From a bacterium (GTDB lineage: Bacteria > Patescibacteriota > Minisyncoccia > Phycocordibacterales > Phycocordibacteraceae): a stretch of 64,000 nucleotides of DNA. Positions 9,436 to 58,908 of the stretch are shown in pieces. Where the stretch lies: assembly GCA_027311385.1 (NCBI GenBank), contig DAICZA010000001.1, forward strand, positions 5,271 through 69,270, given 5' to 3'. Under the pieces are notes generated by a model that saw nothing but the letters and a program-made list of their open reading frames with translations, was not told the origin of the DNA and ran no database searches. Both the position numbers and the translations under genes were made by a program. Positions within the stretch are counted from its first letter, which is position 1; the number at the start of each line of letters is the position of its first letter.

Positions 9436-9507
9436 GGCCTCATCGTCTAACGGTTAGGACAGCGCCCTCTCACGGCGTAAATCGGGGTTCGATTCCCCGT
9501 GAGGTCA
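9436..9507 (+). tRNA. tRNA-Glu (anticodon CUC)
   Basis: Cloverleaf folds by hand: acceptor GGCCTCA/TGAGGTC (one G-U), D-arm GTCT-AACGGTTA-GGAC, anticodon stem GCGCC/GGCGT with loop CTCTCAC, T-arm CGGGG-TTCGATT-CCCCG, discriminator A; CCA not encoded. Confidence 0.8.
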
Positions 9508-9511
9508 CAAA

Positions 9512-30770: not shown

Positions 30771-30919
30771 TCCGCGGGAGCTCAGTGGTAAGCCCTCCGG
30801 GCTTTCTGCGTCGGCACTCGGCAGAAATGAATGTGCAGACGCATTCATTCCGCCTCACTTCTCGCAGTAGAGCGGATCGCCTCGAGAACATCGTGCAAGT
30901 TCATCGTCTGCAGTTCCAT
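30771..30919 (+). ncRNA. structured RNA-like region beginning with a 20-nt near-copy of the tRNA-Asn 5' end
   Basis: TCCGCGGGAGCTCAGTGGTA (19/20 identical to nt 30920-30939) followed by hairpins AAGCCC-TCC-GGGCTT and AATGAATG-N8-CATTCATT; does not fold as a complete tRNA. Confidence 0.3.
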
Positions 30920-30953
30920 TCCGCGGTAGCTCAGTGGTAGAGCGGCTCGCTGT

Positions 30954-31518
30954 GGTTAAAGTTCAGAACCCGATGGTATACTGCACAGAGTATGCCAAAA
31001 GAAAAAAGAACTTATGCCGATCGTGCCGAGTATTTGCGTAAGGCCGTTTCCGAACGTCGTAAGAAACTTCGTGAAATGGCGCGCGAATACCGGGGCGGGA
31101 AATGTATGATTTGTGGTTACAAACGGTATTCGGGAGCACTTGATTTCCACCATCGAGACCCCACGAAGAAAGACTTTGGTCTTTCTGTGAAGGGACTTAC
31201 GCGATCGTGGGAGAAAATCAAAATAGAGATTGAGAAATGTGCTCTCGTGTGCGCAAACTGTCATCGCGAAATACATGCAGGCATTACGCAGCTTCCTACA
31301 GAAATGTAGACTGAAAACGAGGTGAATTCGGGGAAACCCTAACAGAGGAAATGCTGTGGGCAATCCCGAGCCAAGTCCCGAGAGTAATCAAGGGAAAGGT
31401 GTAGAGACTATCCCGCAAGGGAGTAGACCGAAAGGTCGAAGCGCCTCGCATCCGACATTTACGAAATGTAAAAAGGATGATGATATAGTCCATCCCGCCA
31501 GTAACGGCGGAACAAATG
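30954..31518 (+). ncRNA. group I intron with embedded HNH homing-endonuclease ORF
   Basis: P7-like pairing (AGACTA...TAGTCC) in the 3' core, omega-G, U at 5' splice site; ORF sits in a peripheral loop. Confidence 0.6.
30992..31309 (+). CDS. HNH homing endonuclease (intron-encoded)
   Basis: CMICGY...HHRDP...CANCHREIH: CxxC/HH/CxxCH zinc-finger HNH motif, 105 aa. Confidence 0.8.
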   Translation: MPKEKRTYADRAEYLRKAVSERRKKLREMAREYRGGKCMICGYKRYSGALDFHHRDPTKKDFGLSVKGLTRSWEKIKIEIEKCALVCANCHREIHAGITQLPTEM

Positions 31519-31716
31519 TAACGAGTTGGTCGTAGGTTCGAATCCTACCCGCGGAGCTAGAAACAGTTAGGCCCTAATGCGAAAGCATCGGGGTCTTACT
31601 GTTTCTCTTCGTCGGTAGGATTCGAAGGCCGGAGGCGGACGCGCCGAGGCGGGGTCGCGCAAAATCTCAGCAGAGATTTATGCGCGACCGAGTCCTGCTC
31701 CCGGAGCCGAGTGAGC

Positions 31717-40414: not shown

Positions 40415-40593
40415 AGCGGCCGATGATAGTACGAAGTGTAGCAGACCGGCGGACGCGAACGGCCTGTTGACAAGAAACTGCAGGTCTGCTATTCTGTGTG
40501 CATCAACCAGCGCTGGATCCAAAGAAGTGGGATCGAGCTTCTCTCTTCGGCTACTGATTTGATACCTTAGTCACACACACTATCTACTGCAGT

Positions 40594-40803
40594 ATGCAAA
40601 ACGGTACAGTCATCAAGAAGAACCAGAACGGCTTCGGCTTCATCAAAGTTGATGGAGCCGCGGATGGCGCGAAGGACCTTTTCTTCCACTCTAACGAGCT
40701 CCAGAACATTTCGTTTGACGAGCTCCAGGAGGGAGACAAAGTCTCGTTCACCATCGGCGACAGCCCGAAGGGCCCGAACGCCCTCGGCGTCAGCAAGGTC
40801 TAA
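40594..40803 (+). CDS. cspA: cold-shock protein (CspA family)
   Basis: GTVIKKNQNGFGFIKVDG...LFFHSNEL RNP1/RNP2 motifs. Confidence 0.9.
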   Translation: MQNGTVIKKNQNGFGFIKVDGAADGAKDLFFHSNELQNISFDELQEGDKVSFTIGDSPKGPNALGVSKV

Positions 40804-40818
40804 GCAATTAGATTGAGC

Positions 40819-40852
40819 AGAAATCGCCCCGCGAAAGCGGGGCGATTTCTAT
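40819..40852. terminator. bidirectional terminator (GAAATCGCCCCGC-gaaa-GCGGGGCGATTTC)
   Basis: 13-bp perfect stem with GNRA-like loop. Confidence 0.55.
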
Positions 40853-53915: not shown

Positions 53916-55892
53916 ATGCGCGCTCTTATCCTCGGCAACGGTTCGCTCCTCGTCACACTTGATGCGACCGGCGAGGTCCGCGACCTCTATTTCCCCCATG
54001 CCGGACTGGAGAATCATACCGGCGGCGATACCCGGCACCGAATCGGCGTATATTGCGACGGCGCGCTCTCGTGGCTTTCGGAAGACCCGCGGTGGGAAAT
54101 ACAGGTGTCCTGCGAGGAGGACTCCCTTGAGAGCCGCATTACCGCGAAGAATCCGGCGATTGAGGTTGAACTCGCGTTCCGCGATATCGTCTACAACGAG
54201 AGTTCAATATTCCTCCGCCAGATTACGGTCACGAACCGCGCCGCACGGGCGCGGGAGATTAAGTTGTATCTCGGGCATAAATTCACCATCGGCCAATCCC
54301 ACGGCGGCGAAACCGCCTACTTTGACCCGGCGACCAAAGTCATTATCCACTACAAGGGTAAACGCGCCTTTCTCATAAATGCGGAGTGCGACGGGGTGCC
54401 GTTCTCGGACTATGCCATCGGCATTACGCACTTTGAAGGAAAGCAAGGCACGTACCGCGACGCGGAAGACGGGGCGCTCTCAAAAAATCCGATTGAACAC
54501 GGGCATGTTGACTCGGTCATCGGGTTGTATAACCGGTACGAGGCGGGAGCAGAAAAGCAGGTCCGCTACTGGCTTGCGGTCGGCGATTCAATTGAACGGA
54601 CGCTGGAACTGAACGCGTATGTGCTCAAGAAGAGTCCCGAGCACCTCGTGAAGACCGCCGGGAATTATTGGCAGGCGTGGATTAACCGGTACCCGTGGAG
54701 TTTCTATCGTATGTCTCCCAAGACCGTAGCACTTTTCAAGAAATCGCTTATGTTCGTACGCGCGCACGTGGACGACGGCGGCGGCATCATCGCTTCCGCC
54801 GACGCGGCGGTTCTGCAATTCGGAGAAGACACGTACGCTTATGTCTGGCCGCGCGACGCGTCCTACGCGGCGCTCGCGCTTGACCATGCCGGCGACACCA
54901 ATGTCGCGGAACGGTTCTTCAATTTCTGCAACGCGGTCATCAGCAAAGACGGATATTTCATGCACAAATATCTGCCCGACCGTTCGCTCGGCTCTTCGTG
55001 GCACCCGTGGATACGGGACGGCGTAGAACAATTACCCATCCAGGAAGACGAGACGTCACTCGTCATCTGGGCGCTCGCCAAACACTATACGCACAGCCAC
55101 GACCTGGAGTTCATAGAATCCCTCTACAATTCTCTCATAGAAAAGGCGGCGAATTTTATGGCGGCGTACCGCGACACCGCAACCGGACTCCCGAAACCGT
55201 CGTACGACCTCTGGGAACAGAAGCACGGCGTCTCAACGTTTACTTCCGCCGCCGTGTACGGTGCACTCTCGGTCACCGCCGACCTTGCCGGCATTCTCGG
55301 GAAGGAAGACCGCAAGCAATTCTACCTCGCCGCCGCCACCGAGGTTCGCGAGGGAATCCTGACCCATCTGTTTGACCCGGAAACGGGGAGGTTCGCGAAA
55401 ATGATTGAGACCGTTGACCGGAAAACGGTGTACGACTCCCGGACGGATATCTCAAGCGTATACGGAGTCCTTTCTTTCGGCGTACTGCCGCCGGATGACC
55501 CCCGGCTTGCAAAAGCATTTGAGAATACGGTTGCACGATTGTCGGTCCAGGGCGGCGTTATGCGCTATGAGGATGACCACTATTATGATGACAACGCGGC
55601 GGACGGCGTCAGCAATCCCTGGTTCATTACGACGCTTTGGTACGCGGAATACCTCACGGCGCGCGCAAAAAGCGAAGAAGATTTTGCAAAAGTGCGGGAC
55701 ATTTTTGAGTGGGTCGCCCGCCACGCACTGTCTTCCGGCGTCCTTTCCGAACAGTTATCGGCAACAGACGGCACCCAGCGTTCGGTCGCCCCGCTTATGT
55801 GGAGCCACGCCGCCTACGTAAACGCCGTCTTGAATTATCTTGACCGGCTCGCGGAGGTCGGCATCTGTCCGGCCTGCAATCCGGTCCCGTGA
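53916..55892 (+). CDS. glycoside hydrolase family 15 (glucoamylase/glucodextranase-like)
   Basis: YAYVWPRDASYAALAL, NPWFITTLWYAEY (alpha/alpha)6 barrel signatures; N-terminal beta-sandwich. Confidence 0.75.
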   Translation: MRALILGNGSLLVTLDATGEVRDLYFPHAGLENHTGGDTRHRIGVYCDGALSWLSEDPRWEIQVSCEEDSLESRITAKNPAIEVELAFRDIVYNESSIFLRQITVTNRAARAREIKLYLGHKFTIGQSHGGETAYFDPATKVIIHYKGKRAFLINAECDGVPFSDYAIGITHFEGKQGTYRDAEDGALSKNPIEHGHVDSVIGLYNRYEAGAEKQVRYWLAVGDSIERTLELNAYVLKKSPEHLVKTAGNYWQAWINRYPWSFYRMSPKTVALFKKSLMFVRAHVDDGGGIIASADAAVLQFGEDTYAYVWPRDASYAALALDHAGDTNVAERFFNFCNAVISKDGYFMHKYLPDRSLGSSWHPWIRDGVEQLPIQEDETSLVIWALAKHYTHSHDLEFIESLYNSLIEKAANFMAAYRDTATGLPKPSYDLWEQKHGVSTFTSAAVYGALSVTADLAGILGKEDRKQFYLAAATEVREGILTHLFDPETGRFAKMIETVDRKTVYDSRTDISSVYGVLSFGVLPPDDPRLAKAFENTVARLSVQGGVMRYEDDHYYDDNAADGVSNPWFITTLWYAEYLTARAKSEEDFAKVRDIFEWVARHALSSGVLSEQLSATDGTQRSVAPLMWSHAAYVNAVLNYLDRLAEVGICPACNPVP

Positions 55893-56026
55893 GCCGCTAG
55901 CGCACACCAGATCGGCGACGAACTGGGGTCGGGCGGCAACGACGAAGCGGTCTATAAAACAGACGCGCAAAAACTATATTTTAAGGCGTCTTTTGGTTGT
56001 TGCAGTGTTTGATTTATAAAAAGTGC

Positions 56027-56347
56027 TTGACAGGATTTTATAACCTGCTATGATAGCACTACGTTCTAGTCGGGAGGAGATTCCTGCCCCAACGAGCGTT
56101 GTGCCGGCGAGGCTTCGGTCACGCTTTGCACAGGAGGTAGATGTACCTGGAGAGAGAGTAGGAGGTCGGCTGCCTAGGAGCCGATAACATTCGGTCTCAT
56201 GAACCGAATCGTTCCGCGGAAATTCCGCCAGTGCGGCGGGGGAGCTCTGAAAGGACGGGATGAGCTCCGTCGTTTTGTGCCGGATCGCCCAAGGGCGATC
56301 CACGGGGTGAAGGTTGACCGCAGGTCTCCTTCACCCCTTTTATTTTT
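56027..56347 (+). ncRNA. candidate unidentified structured RNA (own promoter TTGACA-N17-TATGAT, multiple hairpins, intrinsic terminator)
   Basis: About 290 nt with no convincing ORF; hairpins GTCGGCT/AGCCGAT, ATTCGGT/ACCGAAT, GGAGCTC/GAGCTCC, GGATCGCCC/GGGCGATCC; terminator GGGGTGAAGG...CCTTCACCCC+T-run at 56304-56347. No RNase P, tmRNA or SRP signature seen. Confidence 0.3.
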
Positions 56348-56424
56348 CTATACTCAATTCTTCATAAGCCGCACGAGGCGGATGGTTTCAAACGAGTGAG
56401 TTCATTTGTTTTGTCCACAAATCA

Positions 56425-56449
56425 ATGATGGGTTTCCGAAACCCATCAT
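56425..56449. repeat. REP-like perfect palindrome at left end of the RAYT gene (ATGATGGGTTTCCGAAACCCATCAT)
   Basis: 25-bp palindrome; related copies at 56616-56636 and 57152-57175. Confidence 0.6.
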
Positions 56450-56463
56450 GTATGATGAGGAAG

Positions 56464-57153
56464 ATGGAACTTTGGCACGCACTCAATCGGGGCGTTGACG
56501 GAAGAGATCTCTTTCTAGATTCTCAAGATTATGCACGCTTTGTTCACAATCTCTACGAATTTAACGACGTAGCCCCAGCTGATAATCTTGTGCGTCTCTT
56601 TGATCCTTCTGGTATGAGGGATTTCCGAAACCCTTCATTTAGGAAAAGCCGCAAGATGTTGGTGGATATTCACGGGTGGACATTGATGAAGAACCATTAT
56701 CATCTTTTGCTATCCGAAAGAATCGAAAACGGTATTAGATTATTTCTTCGCAAACTGAATGTTGGCTATGCAAATTATTTCAACAAACGCTACGAACGGA
56801 AAGGAACCCTTTTCCAAGGACATACAAAGAAAATATTGATCGTGCGCCAATCGCATTTTCTTTATATTCTCCATTATTTGCACCTTAATCCGCTTGATTA
56901 TCTTTCAGGTGCACAAGAATGGCGTCTGCGCAGTAAAAACGGGATCCGGGGCACGGGAGCAGCATTAGAACATCTTGACTCATATCGCTGGAGCAGTTAT
57001 CTCGATTATACTGGCAAAAAGAACTTCCCTTCTATTCTTACCCCGTCTCTTTTTAAGAATGTGCTCGGTGACTATCGCGATTCGCTCAAGGAATATCTTC
57101 ATGACGCCGAGTATGAATACGATGACGGTATAACGAGACTGACTATGGAATGA
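56464..57153 (+). CDS. REP-associated tyrosine transposase (RAYT; IS200-like Y1 HuH transposase)
   Basis: HuH motif in IHGWTLMKNHYHLLL, catalytic Tyr region (YANYFNKRY); start at MELWHAL. The track start 56425 lies inside the palindrome. Confidence 0.8.
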   Translation: MELWHALNRGVDGRDLFLDSQDYARFVHNLYEFNDVAPADNLVRLFDPSGMRDFRNPSFRKSRKMLVDIHGWTLMKNHYHLLLSERIENGIRLFLRKLNVGYANYFNKRYERKGTLFQGHTKKILIVRQSHFLYILHYLHLNPLDYLSGAQEWRLRSKNGIRGTGAALEHLDSYRWSSYLDYTGKKNFPSILTPSLFKNVLGDYRDSLKEYLHDAEYEYDDGITRLTME

Positions 57154-57198
57154 TGGGTTTCGGAAACCCTTCATCGGGAGTGATTGAGAACATACTCG

Positions 57199-58908
57199 CT
57201 AGCGCATAAGCCGCACGAGGCGGATGGTTTCAAACGAGTGGCGCCCGTGGAGGGCGTGGAAGACGGGCGAGAGTTTATCGCCCTGCGCCTCCGCGAGCGC
57301 CTCATGGACTTCGCCGACGATATCCAGCGGCACGAGATGCGCGAAATCACTGCGCGTGAGCTTGCCGATGTCTGCGAGCTCTTCCAAGTGATGCACGACC
57401 GTTGACGGGACAATCCCGCGCGCCTTCGCCGCGTCCTTGAGACTTTTTGCGTCCCGCACGGCGGAAAGCGTTTCCGCAAGCCGTCCCGGCAATCCCGCCG
57501 CCGTTGCATTCCCTTTTCTGTCTCCTGTTTTTTGTTTTTTACCTGCCGTCTCTTCCATCCATGCGCCGCCCATCGCTTTGACGAATTTTTTCTGCATTCC
57601 AATCTTTTCCGCCTCCGGCATCTGCACAAATGCGTCCCGCGCCGCCTCACTGGCGGCGCGGAAATCCCGGTCCTTCTCCAAAATCTCCGGATGTACCTCA
57701 AGCGCGCGCTGGTTGAGACCGGTGAGGTACACGCCGGAGAGCCGCCGCACGCGCGAGAGCGCGACGTATCCCTGCCCGTATTCAAACGCTTTGGAGAGGT
57801 CCATAATCGCGGCGTCCATACTCATCCCCTGGCTCTTGTGCACCGTCATCGCATAGGCGAGCCGCAGCGGCACCTGCGCGACGCTCGCCTTCACCTTTCC
57901 CTGCTCTTCCAGCTGCCACTCCATCGGCTCGGTAGAAATTTTCAGGCCGTCCTTCGTCTCAACGATAGGCATTCCGCCCGCGTCGGTGCCGATGACGACG
58001 CCGAGCGTCCCGTTGACGAACCTTCCTTGCGGCGAATTCTTGGTGAACATCACCGCCGCGCCTTCTTTCAATTCCAATGTCTCCGGCGAGAGACAGCCGC
58101 GCTTCAGCCCCTCTACGAGCGACTCTTTCCCTTTGGAACTCATACGGAAGGTCAGCACCTTGCCCGGGAGCTTCGCGAGCTCGGCGGCGTTGATGCGGTC
58201 CACGTCGGCGTTGTGCGAGAAGAGCTTCGGCGCGCCCAGTACCACATCCGATGTGGTACTGGGCAAGCCCGCTTCGGATTCTCCCGAGCCGATGCGACGT
58301 GCGTTTAATGCTTCATAGTGGAGCTCCTCTACGTTCCCCGCGCGGATTGCCGAGAGTACGCCGAGGAATTCCGCGTCGTCCTGCCGGTACTGCTCGGTGA
58401 GGTAGCAAGTGATGAGGTTCAGGTCGCGCCACAGGGGCGACGTGTACGCGAATTGGACGTCGCGGGCGCGCGACACCGGCGGCAACTGGAAGAAGTCGCC
58501 CACGAGTATAAGCGTGAGCCCGCCGAAGGGTTTATCCACGCGCCGCACTTCGCGGCAAATCGCGTCCGCCATTTCAAACGTCGTCGCCGAGAGCATGGAA
58601 ATCTCTTCAATGATGAGCACCTTCGCTTTCTGGATGCGCCGCGCGACATGCTCCTTGCCCGCGATGCGGTCCACGTCCGCGCGAGAAAGCGACTCGCTGA
58701 TGCCGATGCCGCTCCAGGAGTGGAGCGTCATTCCGCTTACGTGCGTCGCGGCGATGCCGGTTGCCGCCGTCACCGACGGCTCAATGCCGGAATCGCGCAG
58801 CCACGCGACGAACTCGTTGATGGTGTGTGTTTTCCCGCTCCCGGGCTCGCCGGTGAGGTACACGTTCGCACCCGTTTTCAATATGGTCAGCGCTTCGCCT
58901 TGGGTCAT
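57199..58908 (-). CDS. PIF1/RecD-family ATP-dependent DNA helicase
   Basis: Walker A GEPGSGKT, Walker B LIIEEISML, PIF1-like motifs GDFFQLPPV, ...QSQGMS; C-terminal codons lie in the right 36-bp direct repeat of the RAYT unit. Confidence 0.8.
   Translation of the reverse strand: MTQGEALTILKTGANVYLTGEPGSGKTHTINEFVAWLRDSGIEPSVTAATGIAATHVSGMTLHSWSGIGISESLSRADVDRIAGKEHVARRIQKAKVLIIEEISMLSATTFEMADAICREVRRVDKPFGGLTLILVGDFFQLPPVSRARDVQFAYTSPLWRDLNLITCYLTEQYRQDDAEFLGVLSAIRAGNVEELHYEALNARRIGSGESEAGLPSTTSDVVLGAPKLFSHNADVDRINAAELAKLPGKVLTFRMSSKGKESLVEGLKRGCLSPETLELKEGAAVMFTKNSPQGRFVNGTLGVVIGTDAGGMPIVETKDGLKISTEPMEWQLEEQGKVKASVAQVPLRLAYAMTVHKSQGMSMDAAIMDLSKAFEYGQGYVALSRVRRLSGVYLTGLNQRALEVHPEILEKDRDFRAASEAARDAFVQMPEAEKIGMQKKFVKAMGGAWMEETAGKKQKTGDRKGNATAAGLPGRLAETLSAVRDAKSLKDAAKARGIVPSTVVHHLEELADIGKLTRSDFAHLVPLDIVGEVHEALAEAQGDKLSPVFHALHGRHSFETIRLVRLMR

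Follow-up and report, generated by a model that had tools for sequence, protein, structure and literature searches.

The 64-kb stretch of DNA analysed here (the window) carries on its plus strand a setting of glycogen-type genes in the order GT5-GH57-GH15, and on its minus strand a gene for a pif1-type helicase. Between GH15 and pif1 lies a predicted transcription unit (the RNA unit), followed by a RAYT element. The identities of GT5, GH57, GH15, PIF1 and an ATPase near the unit come solely from homologs or precomputed Pfam annotation. The GH15 protein of the window matches a protein of Parcubacteria group bacterium 21-58-10 at 100% identity, and the same locus is present in GCA_002255405.1, whose annotation has no gene across this region. 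Loci from relatives are denoted by L numbers; two of them, L007 and L034, carry a homologous unit. The features of the window locus are as follows.

53916-55892, plus strand: GH15 gene.
55911..55964, plus strand: C-terminal remnant of a PMM/HAD-like gene, IGDELGSGGNDEAVYKTD, recognised by comparing its translation with the PMM C-termini of L034 and L048.
56017..56054, plus strand: predicted promoter with an A-rich upstream block ATTTATAAAAAGTGC, a -35 box TTGACA at 56027-56032, TG at 56046-47 and a -10 box TATGAT at 56049-56054.
56061..56347, plus strand: predicted non-coding transcript of ~287 nt, its start placed from the position of the -10 box.
56166..56184, plus strand: perfect hairpin TCGGCT-GCCTAGG-AGCCGA (perfect-stem scan).
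56189..56209, plus strand: perfect hairpin ATTCGGT-CTCATGA-ACCGAAT (perfect-stem scan).
56241..56268, plus strand: perfect hairpin GGAGCTC-(14 nt)-GAGCTCC (perfect-stem scan).
56282..56301, plus strand: perfect hairpin GGATCGCC-CAAG-GGCGATCC (perfect-stem scan and hairpin-density scan).
56304..56347, plus strand: predicted intrinsic terminator with a 10-bp GC-rich stem and an inner 4-bp stem, then TTTTATTTTT.
56362..56398: one of two copies of the final ~36 nt of pif1; the other lies at 57205-57240, and both match one site in L001 (blastn).
56425-57153, plus strand: RAYT/IS200-like Y1 transposase ORF of 242 aa (Pfam PF01797, E = 9e-5).
56425-56449 and 57151-57175: near-identical hairpins flanking the RAYT, ATGATGGGTTTC(C/G)GAAACCC(A/T)TCAT.
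57199..58908, minus strand: pif1-type helicase gene, the convergent neighbour conserved at all three units.

In a consensus scan, the promoter of the RNA unit scored 11/12 with a 16-nt spacer and, in addition, a TG dinucleotide that makes an extended -10 element (TGcTATGAT); with both strands scanned, it is the top -35/-10 match of the whole 64-kb window. The two boxes are those named in a preliminary description of this DNA, which had counted the spacer as 17 rather than 16 nt. At the other end of the unit, GGGGTGAAGG and CCTTCACCCC at 56304-56337 form the terminator hairpin and are followed by the T-run TTTTATTTTT at 56338-47. This region folds with -25.4 kcal/mol (z = -6.0), and a generic terminator scan missed 56304-56347 only because of the 14-nt loop. 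The strong fold bears out the intrinsic terminator described earlier, whereas the clean T9 ascribed to it is an interrupted run of 9 T in 10. The extended -10 sequence TGCTAT resembles that of the promoter of another gene in the window:

40594-40803, plus strand: cold-shock protein (csp) gene (locus 40467-40850) with a TTGACA-17-TGCTATTCT promoter, a 5' UTR of ~95 nt and a 14-bp terminator with a GAAA loop.

Given this similarity, sequences of this type are plausibly the form that strong promoters take in this organism. The signals of the cold-shock gene are also a useful reference for a native promoter and terminator of this organism. An 8-bp inverted repeat, TTATAAAA ... TTTTATAA at 56014-56043 (+), lies on either side of the -35 box of the RNA unit and could be an operator, but L007 and L034 do not conserve it.

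The predicted transcript is rich in secondary structure. The whole RNA has a minimum free energy of -132 kcal/mol (z = -4.7) and contains five perfect stems of at least 6 bp, four of them of at least 7 bp; by comparison, dinucleotide shuffles (n = 500) contained on average 0.22 stems of at least 7 bp and at most 2. The region of the RNA unit is also the hairpin-densest 300 nt of the 64-kb window (5 versus a mean of 0.54), in line with the at least five strong hairpins reported in the preliminary description. All strong stems are perfect Watson-Crick palindromes, and the minus strand folds about equally well (z = -3.3 to -4.7). Because the stems are purely Watson-Crick, the hairpin signal alone is no proof of a function at the level of RNA and on the plus strand; rather, the unit is assigned to the plus strand because of its promoter and terminator and not because of a folding asymmetry (not decisive). 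The GC content of the unit is 58.5%, equal to that of the genome, and that of the window is 58.7%. As for coding potential, every ORF in the unit either begins within the -10 box, continues past the terminator or is on the antisense strand, and none has a Pfam match or a homolog among 5.8 billion proteins and 1.8 billion cluster representatives. A small-protein gene was considered and rejected, as the ORFs are not conserved between units and the antisense ORF of 109 aa and the ORF of 66 aa are without homologs. The earlier account of about 290 nt without a credible ORF is thus upheld: the unit spans ~287 nt and has no shared ORF, Pfam match or protein homolog.

Searches against known RNA families and repeats were negative. 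With Rfam 15 at gathering thresholds, no family was found in the window unit; at E<=10 on 651 nt (55850-56500), only noise was obtained and no RNase P, tmRNA, SRP or 6S RNA; and at E<=1, there was nothing in the L007 or L034 units. ARAGORN found no tmRNA at the RNA unit. Three low-scoring candidates were rejected: a RAGATH-1 hammerhead (partial match, E = 0.076, with the CUGAUGA core missing), RsmW (16 bits against a gathering threshold of 52 bits, i.e. noise) and DUF805b (a noise-level match at E<=10). The Rfam scan, which the preliminary description had proposed as a check, and ARAGORN therefore agree with its failure to match RNase P, tmRNA, SRP or 6S RNA by eye, and the option of a divergent known family, which it had left standing, is unsupported by both. 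No hairpin of the unit has a second copy in the 64-kb window or the fetched loci, and no hairpin is repeated. The window RNA had no match in a phage collection and one chance-level match of 36 nt (E = 0.9) among plasmids. PADLOC defence models returned only a generic SF1-helicase similarity, for PIF1, and no GC-skew switch or replication terminus was seen at the unit.

Homologous units were identified by synteny walks from GH15 and PIF1 homologs together with a promoter-pattern scan of metagenome contigs. The synteny walks recovered the unit in L007 only. The pattern scan gave 26 matches in metagenome contigs, of which only L034 was homologous; in genome contigs, it gave three unrelated chance matches and in viral contigs one unrelated match. 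The two loci are:

L007 unit, on a Logan contig of sample SRR13727527: between a ROK kinase gene and a ~50-nt 3' fragment of pif1, which is all that the contig keeps of this gene and which adjoins the RNA unit; GH15 81% identical.
L034 unit, on a JGI contig of sample Ga0082335: between an intact PMM/HAD-like gene and pif1; PIF1 82% identical.

In all three loci, the unit occupies the same slot, convergent with pif1, and pif1 is the sole neighbour common to the three. From the end of the -10 box through the T-run, the units are 298, 318 and 426 nt long. An alignment of the three promoters shows ATTT..AAAAGTGCTTGACA and ACCTGCTATG.T to be invariant. In total, 26 promoter positions are invariant in the three lineages, within a footprint that spans about -45 to +1 and can be written as the pattern ATTTRYRAAAAGTGCTTGACA-N11-12-ACCTGCTATG; conservation stops at the edges of the promoter, and neither the sequence of the 16-17-nt spacer nor anything upstream of about -45 is conserved. 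At the 3' end, each unit is closed by a GC hairpin and a U-run, with -18.8 and -20.7 kcal/mol in L007 and L034, respectively, as compared with the -25.4 kcal/mol of the window. The stems of these terminators are built from entirely different sequences. In every unit, no more than about 15-35 nt separate the terminator from the pif1 stop codon, or from the 3' fragment of pif1 where only that is retained. Because the lineages are ~20% divergent in protein, neutral DNA should be scrambled between them, and the conservation therefore points to selection on plus-strand initiation and termination.

The interiors of the three units behave differently from these signals. By blastn, they have no similarity to each other; no k-mer of at least 9 nt is common to all three, and long pairwise matches occur only in the shared 3' T-run. 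No loop or k-mer motif shared by the three units survives multiple testing. A covariance model built from the window hairpins (56163-56303) ranked the L034 unit last (E = 9.9) and missed the L007 unit, and with unalignable interiors the internal hairpins have no covariation support, so that the terminator hairpin is the only structure maintained across the three units. The interiors nonetheless share a high density of hairpins. Perfect stems of at least 7 bp number 4 in the window unit, 2 in L007 and 6 in L034 against 0.22, 0.18 and 0.31 expected, respectively, an enrichment of 10-20 times in every one of these independent interiors, and the fold z-scores are -4.7, -2.2 and -4.4. The check for conservation and covariation suggested earlier therefore has a divided outcome: promoter and terminator recur in L007 and L034, but the interior is unalignable and without covariation. 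Because of the unalignable interiors and the failed covariance model, homology of the RNA bodies and a common function are unproven. By contrast, the recurrence of promoter and terminator at the same slot with differing stem sequences supports an independent plus-strand transcription unit.

The unit has a patchy distribution. The syntenic site lacks it in L001, L002, L004-6, L008, L039-45 and L048-50. In some of these loci, the ROK gene abuts or overlaps pif1 (L002, L004-6, L008), and in others, the PMM gene overlaps the end of pif1 by 10-14 nt (L039-44 and L048-50); the PIF1 of L048-50 is 93% identical to that of L034. Because it is missing from this site in most close relatives, the unit is dispensable. 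In L001, the closest relative by GH15 (86%), the site holds a 57-nt spacer in which TTGATA-15-TATTAT, joined to the shared tail, is possibly what remains of the promoter (read by eye, no statistic); if this reading is correct, the RNA was lost first and the promoter then decayed. The PMM/HAD-like phosphomutase gene is intact in L034, where it lies upstream of the RNA unit, and in L048. The remnant of this gene in the window suggests that the window and L034 descend from a common PMM-RNA-pif1 arrangement. Such patchiness may have come about by repeated loss, or by recombination through the conserved flanks that spread the unit. PGI and ROK genes are slot fillers in relatives; tblastn found no remnant of either in 55893-56400, and a PGI or ROK pseudogene was therefore rejected. 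In one relative, the slot is occupied by a different element:

L045 4747-5787, minus strand: orphan ORF of 346 aa with its own TTGACA / TGCTAT promoter and terminator.

This ORF has no Pfam or PADLOC match. Because it has no similarity to the interiors, we rejected the idea that the RNA unit is its decay product. Together, these arrangements mark the 3' end of pif1 as a hotspot of insertion and variation.

The RAYT of the window is an example of such an insertion. Its GC content is lower than that of the window (42.5% and 58.7%, respectively), it is absent at the site in L001, L007 and L034, and it was inserted in the last codons of pif1. The duplication of the pif1 3' end brackets the RAYT and excludes the RNA, supporting that the RAYT is a separate, later insertion; for the same reason, we rejected that the RNA unit is part of the RAYT element. 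As a result of the insertion, about 850 nt now lie between the RNA and pif1, with the RAYT 75 nt from the RNA. The pif1 3' end together with part of an 'ATACTC' tail occurs twice around the RAYT (56355-56400 and 57190-57247). Around the stop codon, these copies are not the same: copy 1 is L001-like (..TTCTTCATAAGCC) and copy 2 L034-like (..CTAGCGCATAAGCC), which suggests recombination between alleles rather than a simple target duplication.

On the basis of its sequence and that of its two homologs, we consider it probable that the locus is a real non-coding transcription unit of the plus strand, and we infer that it is transcribed in vivo. Our preferred reading, to which we would give a probability of about 45%, goes further and holds that it is an independently transcribed, accessory and lineage-restricted ncRNA gene of ~287 nt whose product acts through its structure as a decoy or sponge. 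In this reading, a near-consensus sigma70 promoter with an extended -10 would drive the unit and an intrinsic terminator would stop it, at a variable slot directly downstream of, and convergent with, pif1 in a Parcubacteria/Paceibacterota lineage. Selection would keep the expression signals and the dense, stable hairpins but not the sequence; because expression signals and hairpins are kept and sequence is not, the action would most likely be structure-driven rather than sequence-driven. The product would be a stable multi-hairpin RNA that presumably accumulates to high abundance and may titrate an RNA-binding protein or ribonuclease, as sponge RNAs of the Csr/Rsm type do. The role as a decoy or sponge is our best guess, drawn by analogy.

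The unit resembles the Csr/Rsm sponge sRNAs (CsrB, RsmY/Z/W) in that both are stand-alone genes with a strong promoter, an intrinsic terminator and many short hairpins. Csr/Rsm sponge sRNAs vary in length, and their primary sequence is very poorly conserved between genera, much as in the units described here. Unlike them, the unit has no regular repeat of GGA in loops, and most of its GGA motifs lie in stems. Over the three units, GGA occurs 30 times versus 23 expected (P = 0.04) and GGAG 16 times versus 8 (P = 0.005, uncorrected), and CTCC is enriched too; because this enrichment is weak and mirrored by CTCC, it stems partly from the palindromic stems. The unit belongs to no described family and is an orphan of the generic class of independent bacterial ncRNA genes, having its own promoter and terminator, conserved across relatives, and no coding potential. 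It shares with generic lineage-restricted intergenic sRNA genes not only its own promoter and terminator but also a narrow phyletic range and frequent loss, and it is often the expression signals that are conserved best in sRNA genes at large. Unlike a generic base-pairing sRNA, however, the units are long (287-426 nt) and show no conserved single-stranded seed. The unusual trait of the unit is the combination of conserved expression signals with the hypervariable hairpin array that they surround.

Among the alternatives, we take seriously, while regarding it as unlikely, that the unit has no function and arose as a by-product of a hotspot of recombination or insertion, in which an orphan promoter from a lost cargo and a shared convergent terminator bracket junk, and in which palindromes accumulate or become perfected by template-switch mutation. 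The variability of the slot downstream of pif1 is what such a hotspot would produce: the neighbouring genes overlap and leave it empty in L002, L004, L008, L039-44 and L048-50, and it is filled by the 346-aa orphan ORF in L045 and by the RAYT in the window. Interiors that cannot be aligned and differ in length, and perfect palindromes that fold equally on both strands, fit as well. Yet an orphan promoter should not have retained 26 invariant positions in three lineages despite their divergence, with conservation ending precisely at its edges, and junk would account neither for terminator hairpins rebuilt with new sequences nor for a 10-20 times enrichment of hairpins in each independent interior; moreover, the L045 ORF is without similarity to the interiors.

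The position of all three units, convergent with pif1 and with terminators about 15-35 nt from its stop codon or 3' fragment, also raises the alternative of a cis-antisense or convergent regulator of pif1 that, by conditional terminator read-through or by pairing of the shared terminator sequence with the pif1 3' UTR, tunes expression of the helicase. We hold this to be improbable because the terminators are strong, most relatives regulate pif1 without the unit, the RAYT puts the RNA about 850 nt from pif1 in the window, and L007 shows just the 3' fragment of pif1 beside the unit.

The hairpins could instead be a REP/BIME-like cluster of DNA palindromes tied to RAYT/IS200-like transposases, with any transcription being incidental. 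Such clusters are typically found between convergent genes, and the unit is likewise a set of extragenic palindromes between convergent genes, perfectly Watson-Crick on both strands, with a RAYT that has its own flanking hairpins only 75 nt away. However, the hairpins of the unit differ from each other and from the RAYT-flanking hairpin ATGATGGGTTTCCGAAACCCATCAT, to which they are unrelated, and no further copy of any of them occurs in the 64-kb window or in the fetched loci; L007 and L034 carry the unit without a RAYT, and in the window the duplicated pif1 3' end identifies the RAYT as a later insertion that excludes the RNA. Because the conserved promoter of the unit is also left unexplained, this reading appears very improbable.

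We also considered that the unit is a guide or memory RNA array, in which a conserved leader/promoter, hypervariable stem-loops and a terminator serve an effector encoded elsewhere. The pertinent precedent is the TIGR-Tas system, the report of which was the only pertinent publication found in the literature on CPR ncRNAs (Faure et al., Science 2025, PMC12045711). TIGR stem-loop arrays are reported there in CPR bacteria and phages, with 'variable but consistently palindromic sequences'. The unit, in what is also a CPR genome, has in common with these arrays tandem stem-loops, stems that are variable palindromes rather than repeats, and a rho-independent terminator (its own transcription being predicted), and conserved expression signals around hypervariable content are what would be expected of such an array. 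Unlike them, it has no box C/D: none of the three units contains an exact box C (RUGAUGA) or an arrangement of box C, spacer and CUGA. Its loops of 4-16 nt are too short for two spacers of 8-12 nt, and there is no periodic unit length. Neither a Nop-domain nor a Tas gene was found within about 10 kb, where 11 ORFs were searched with Pfam and four had no family at all, and none is common to the three loci. In addition, the window RNA has no phage match and its plasmid match is at chance level. We see a very slim chance that a looser version of this idea holds, in which the locus would serve as an 'expression slot': a hypervariable set of unique stem-loops, forming a guide, memory or decoy array that lacks repeats, would be expressed from it and read by an effector encoded elsewhere, with diversifying selection or frequent replacement acting on its content, and the TIGR-Tas-like version is equally doubtful; if true, such a slot would be a new relative of the CRISPR/TIGR logic in CPR bacteria. 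Finally, CPR genomes often carry divergent RNAs, and RNase P, tmRNA, SRP and 6S RNAs are comparable to the unit in length and extent of folding, but with Rfam 15 and ARAGORN negative, the unit lacking at the site in close relatives, which is impossible for an essential RNA kept there, and the ORFs neither conserved nor with homologs, a divergent housekeeping RNA or a small-protein gene is scarcely credible.

The structure-driven ncRNA gene that we favor bears on a group in which little is known on regulatory and accessory RNAs, few such RNAs apparently having been described in the phylum, and in which tiny genomes leave little space for non-functional DNA. In the Candidate Phyla Radiation, the RNA unit is a concrete candidate for a structure-driven (decoy/sponge) or a diversifying RNA. 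Should it turn out to be an inert by-product, it would serve as a warning that a locus can have strong signals for promoter, hairpins and terminator and yet encode no conserved RNA.

Three further observations concern tRNA loci elsewhere in the window. A tRNA-Asn(GUU) at 30920-31557 (+) contains a 565-nt group I intron in its anticodon loop (RF00028 at 31222-31511, 79 bits); the intron carries an ORF resembling an HNH-type homing endonuclease at about 30994-31309 (...CANCHREIH...), and the tRNA was missed by ARAGORN at default settings and found only with the intron search. Just upstream, at 30773-30860 (+), lies a second tRNA-like 5' fragment, ttccgcgggagctcagtggtaag..., perhaps a duplicate that has decayed. 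A perfect 24-bp inverted repeat (TCACAAAAAGACACAAAACTCGGA / CTGC / reverse complement) at 9505-9556 (+) starts at the 3' end of the tRNA-Glu(CUC) at 9436-9508 and is unusually long for a terminator.
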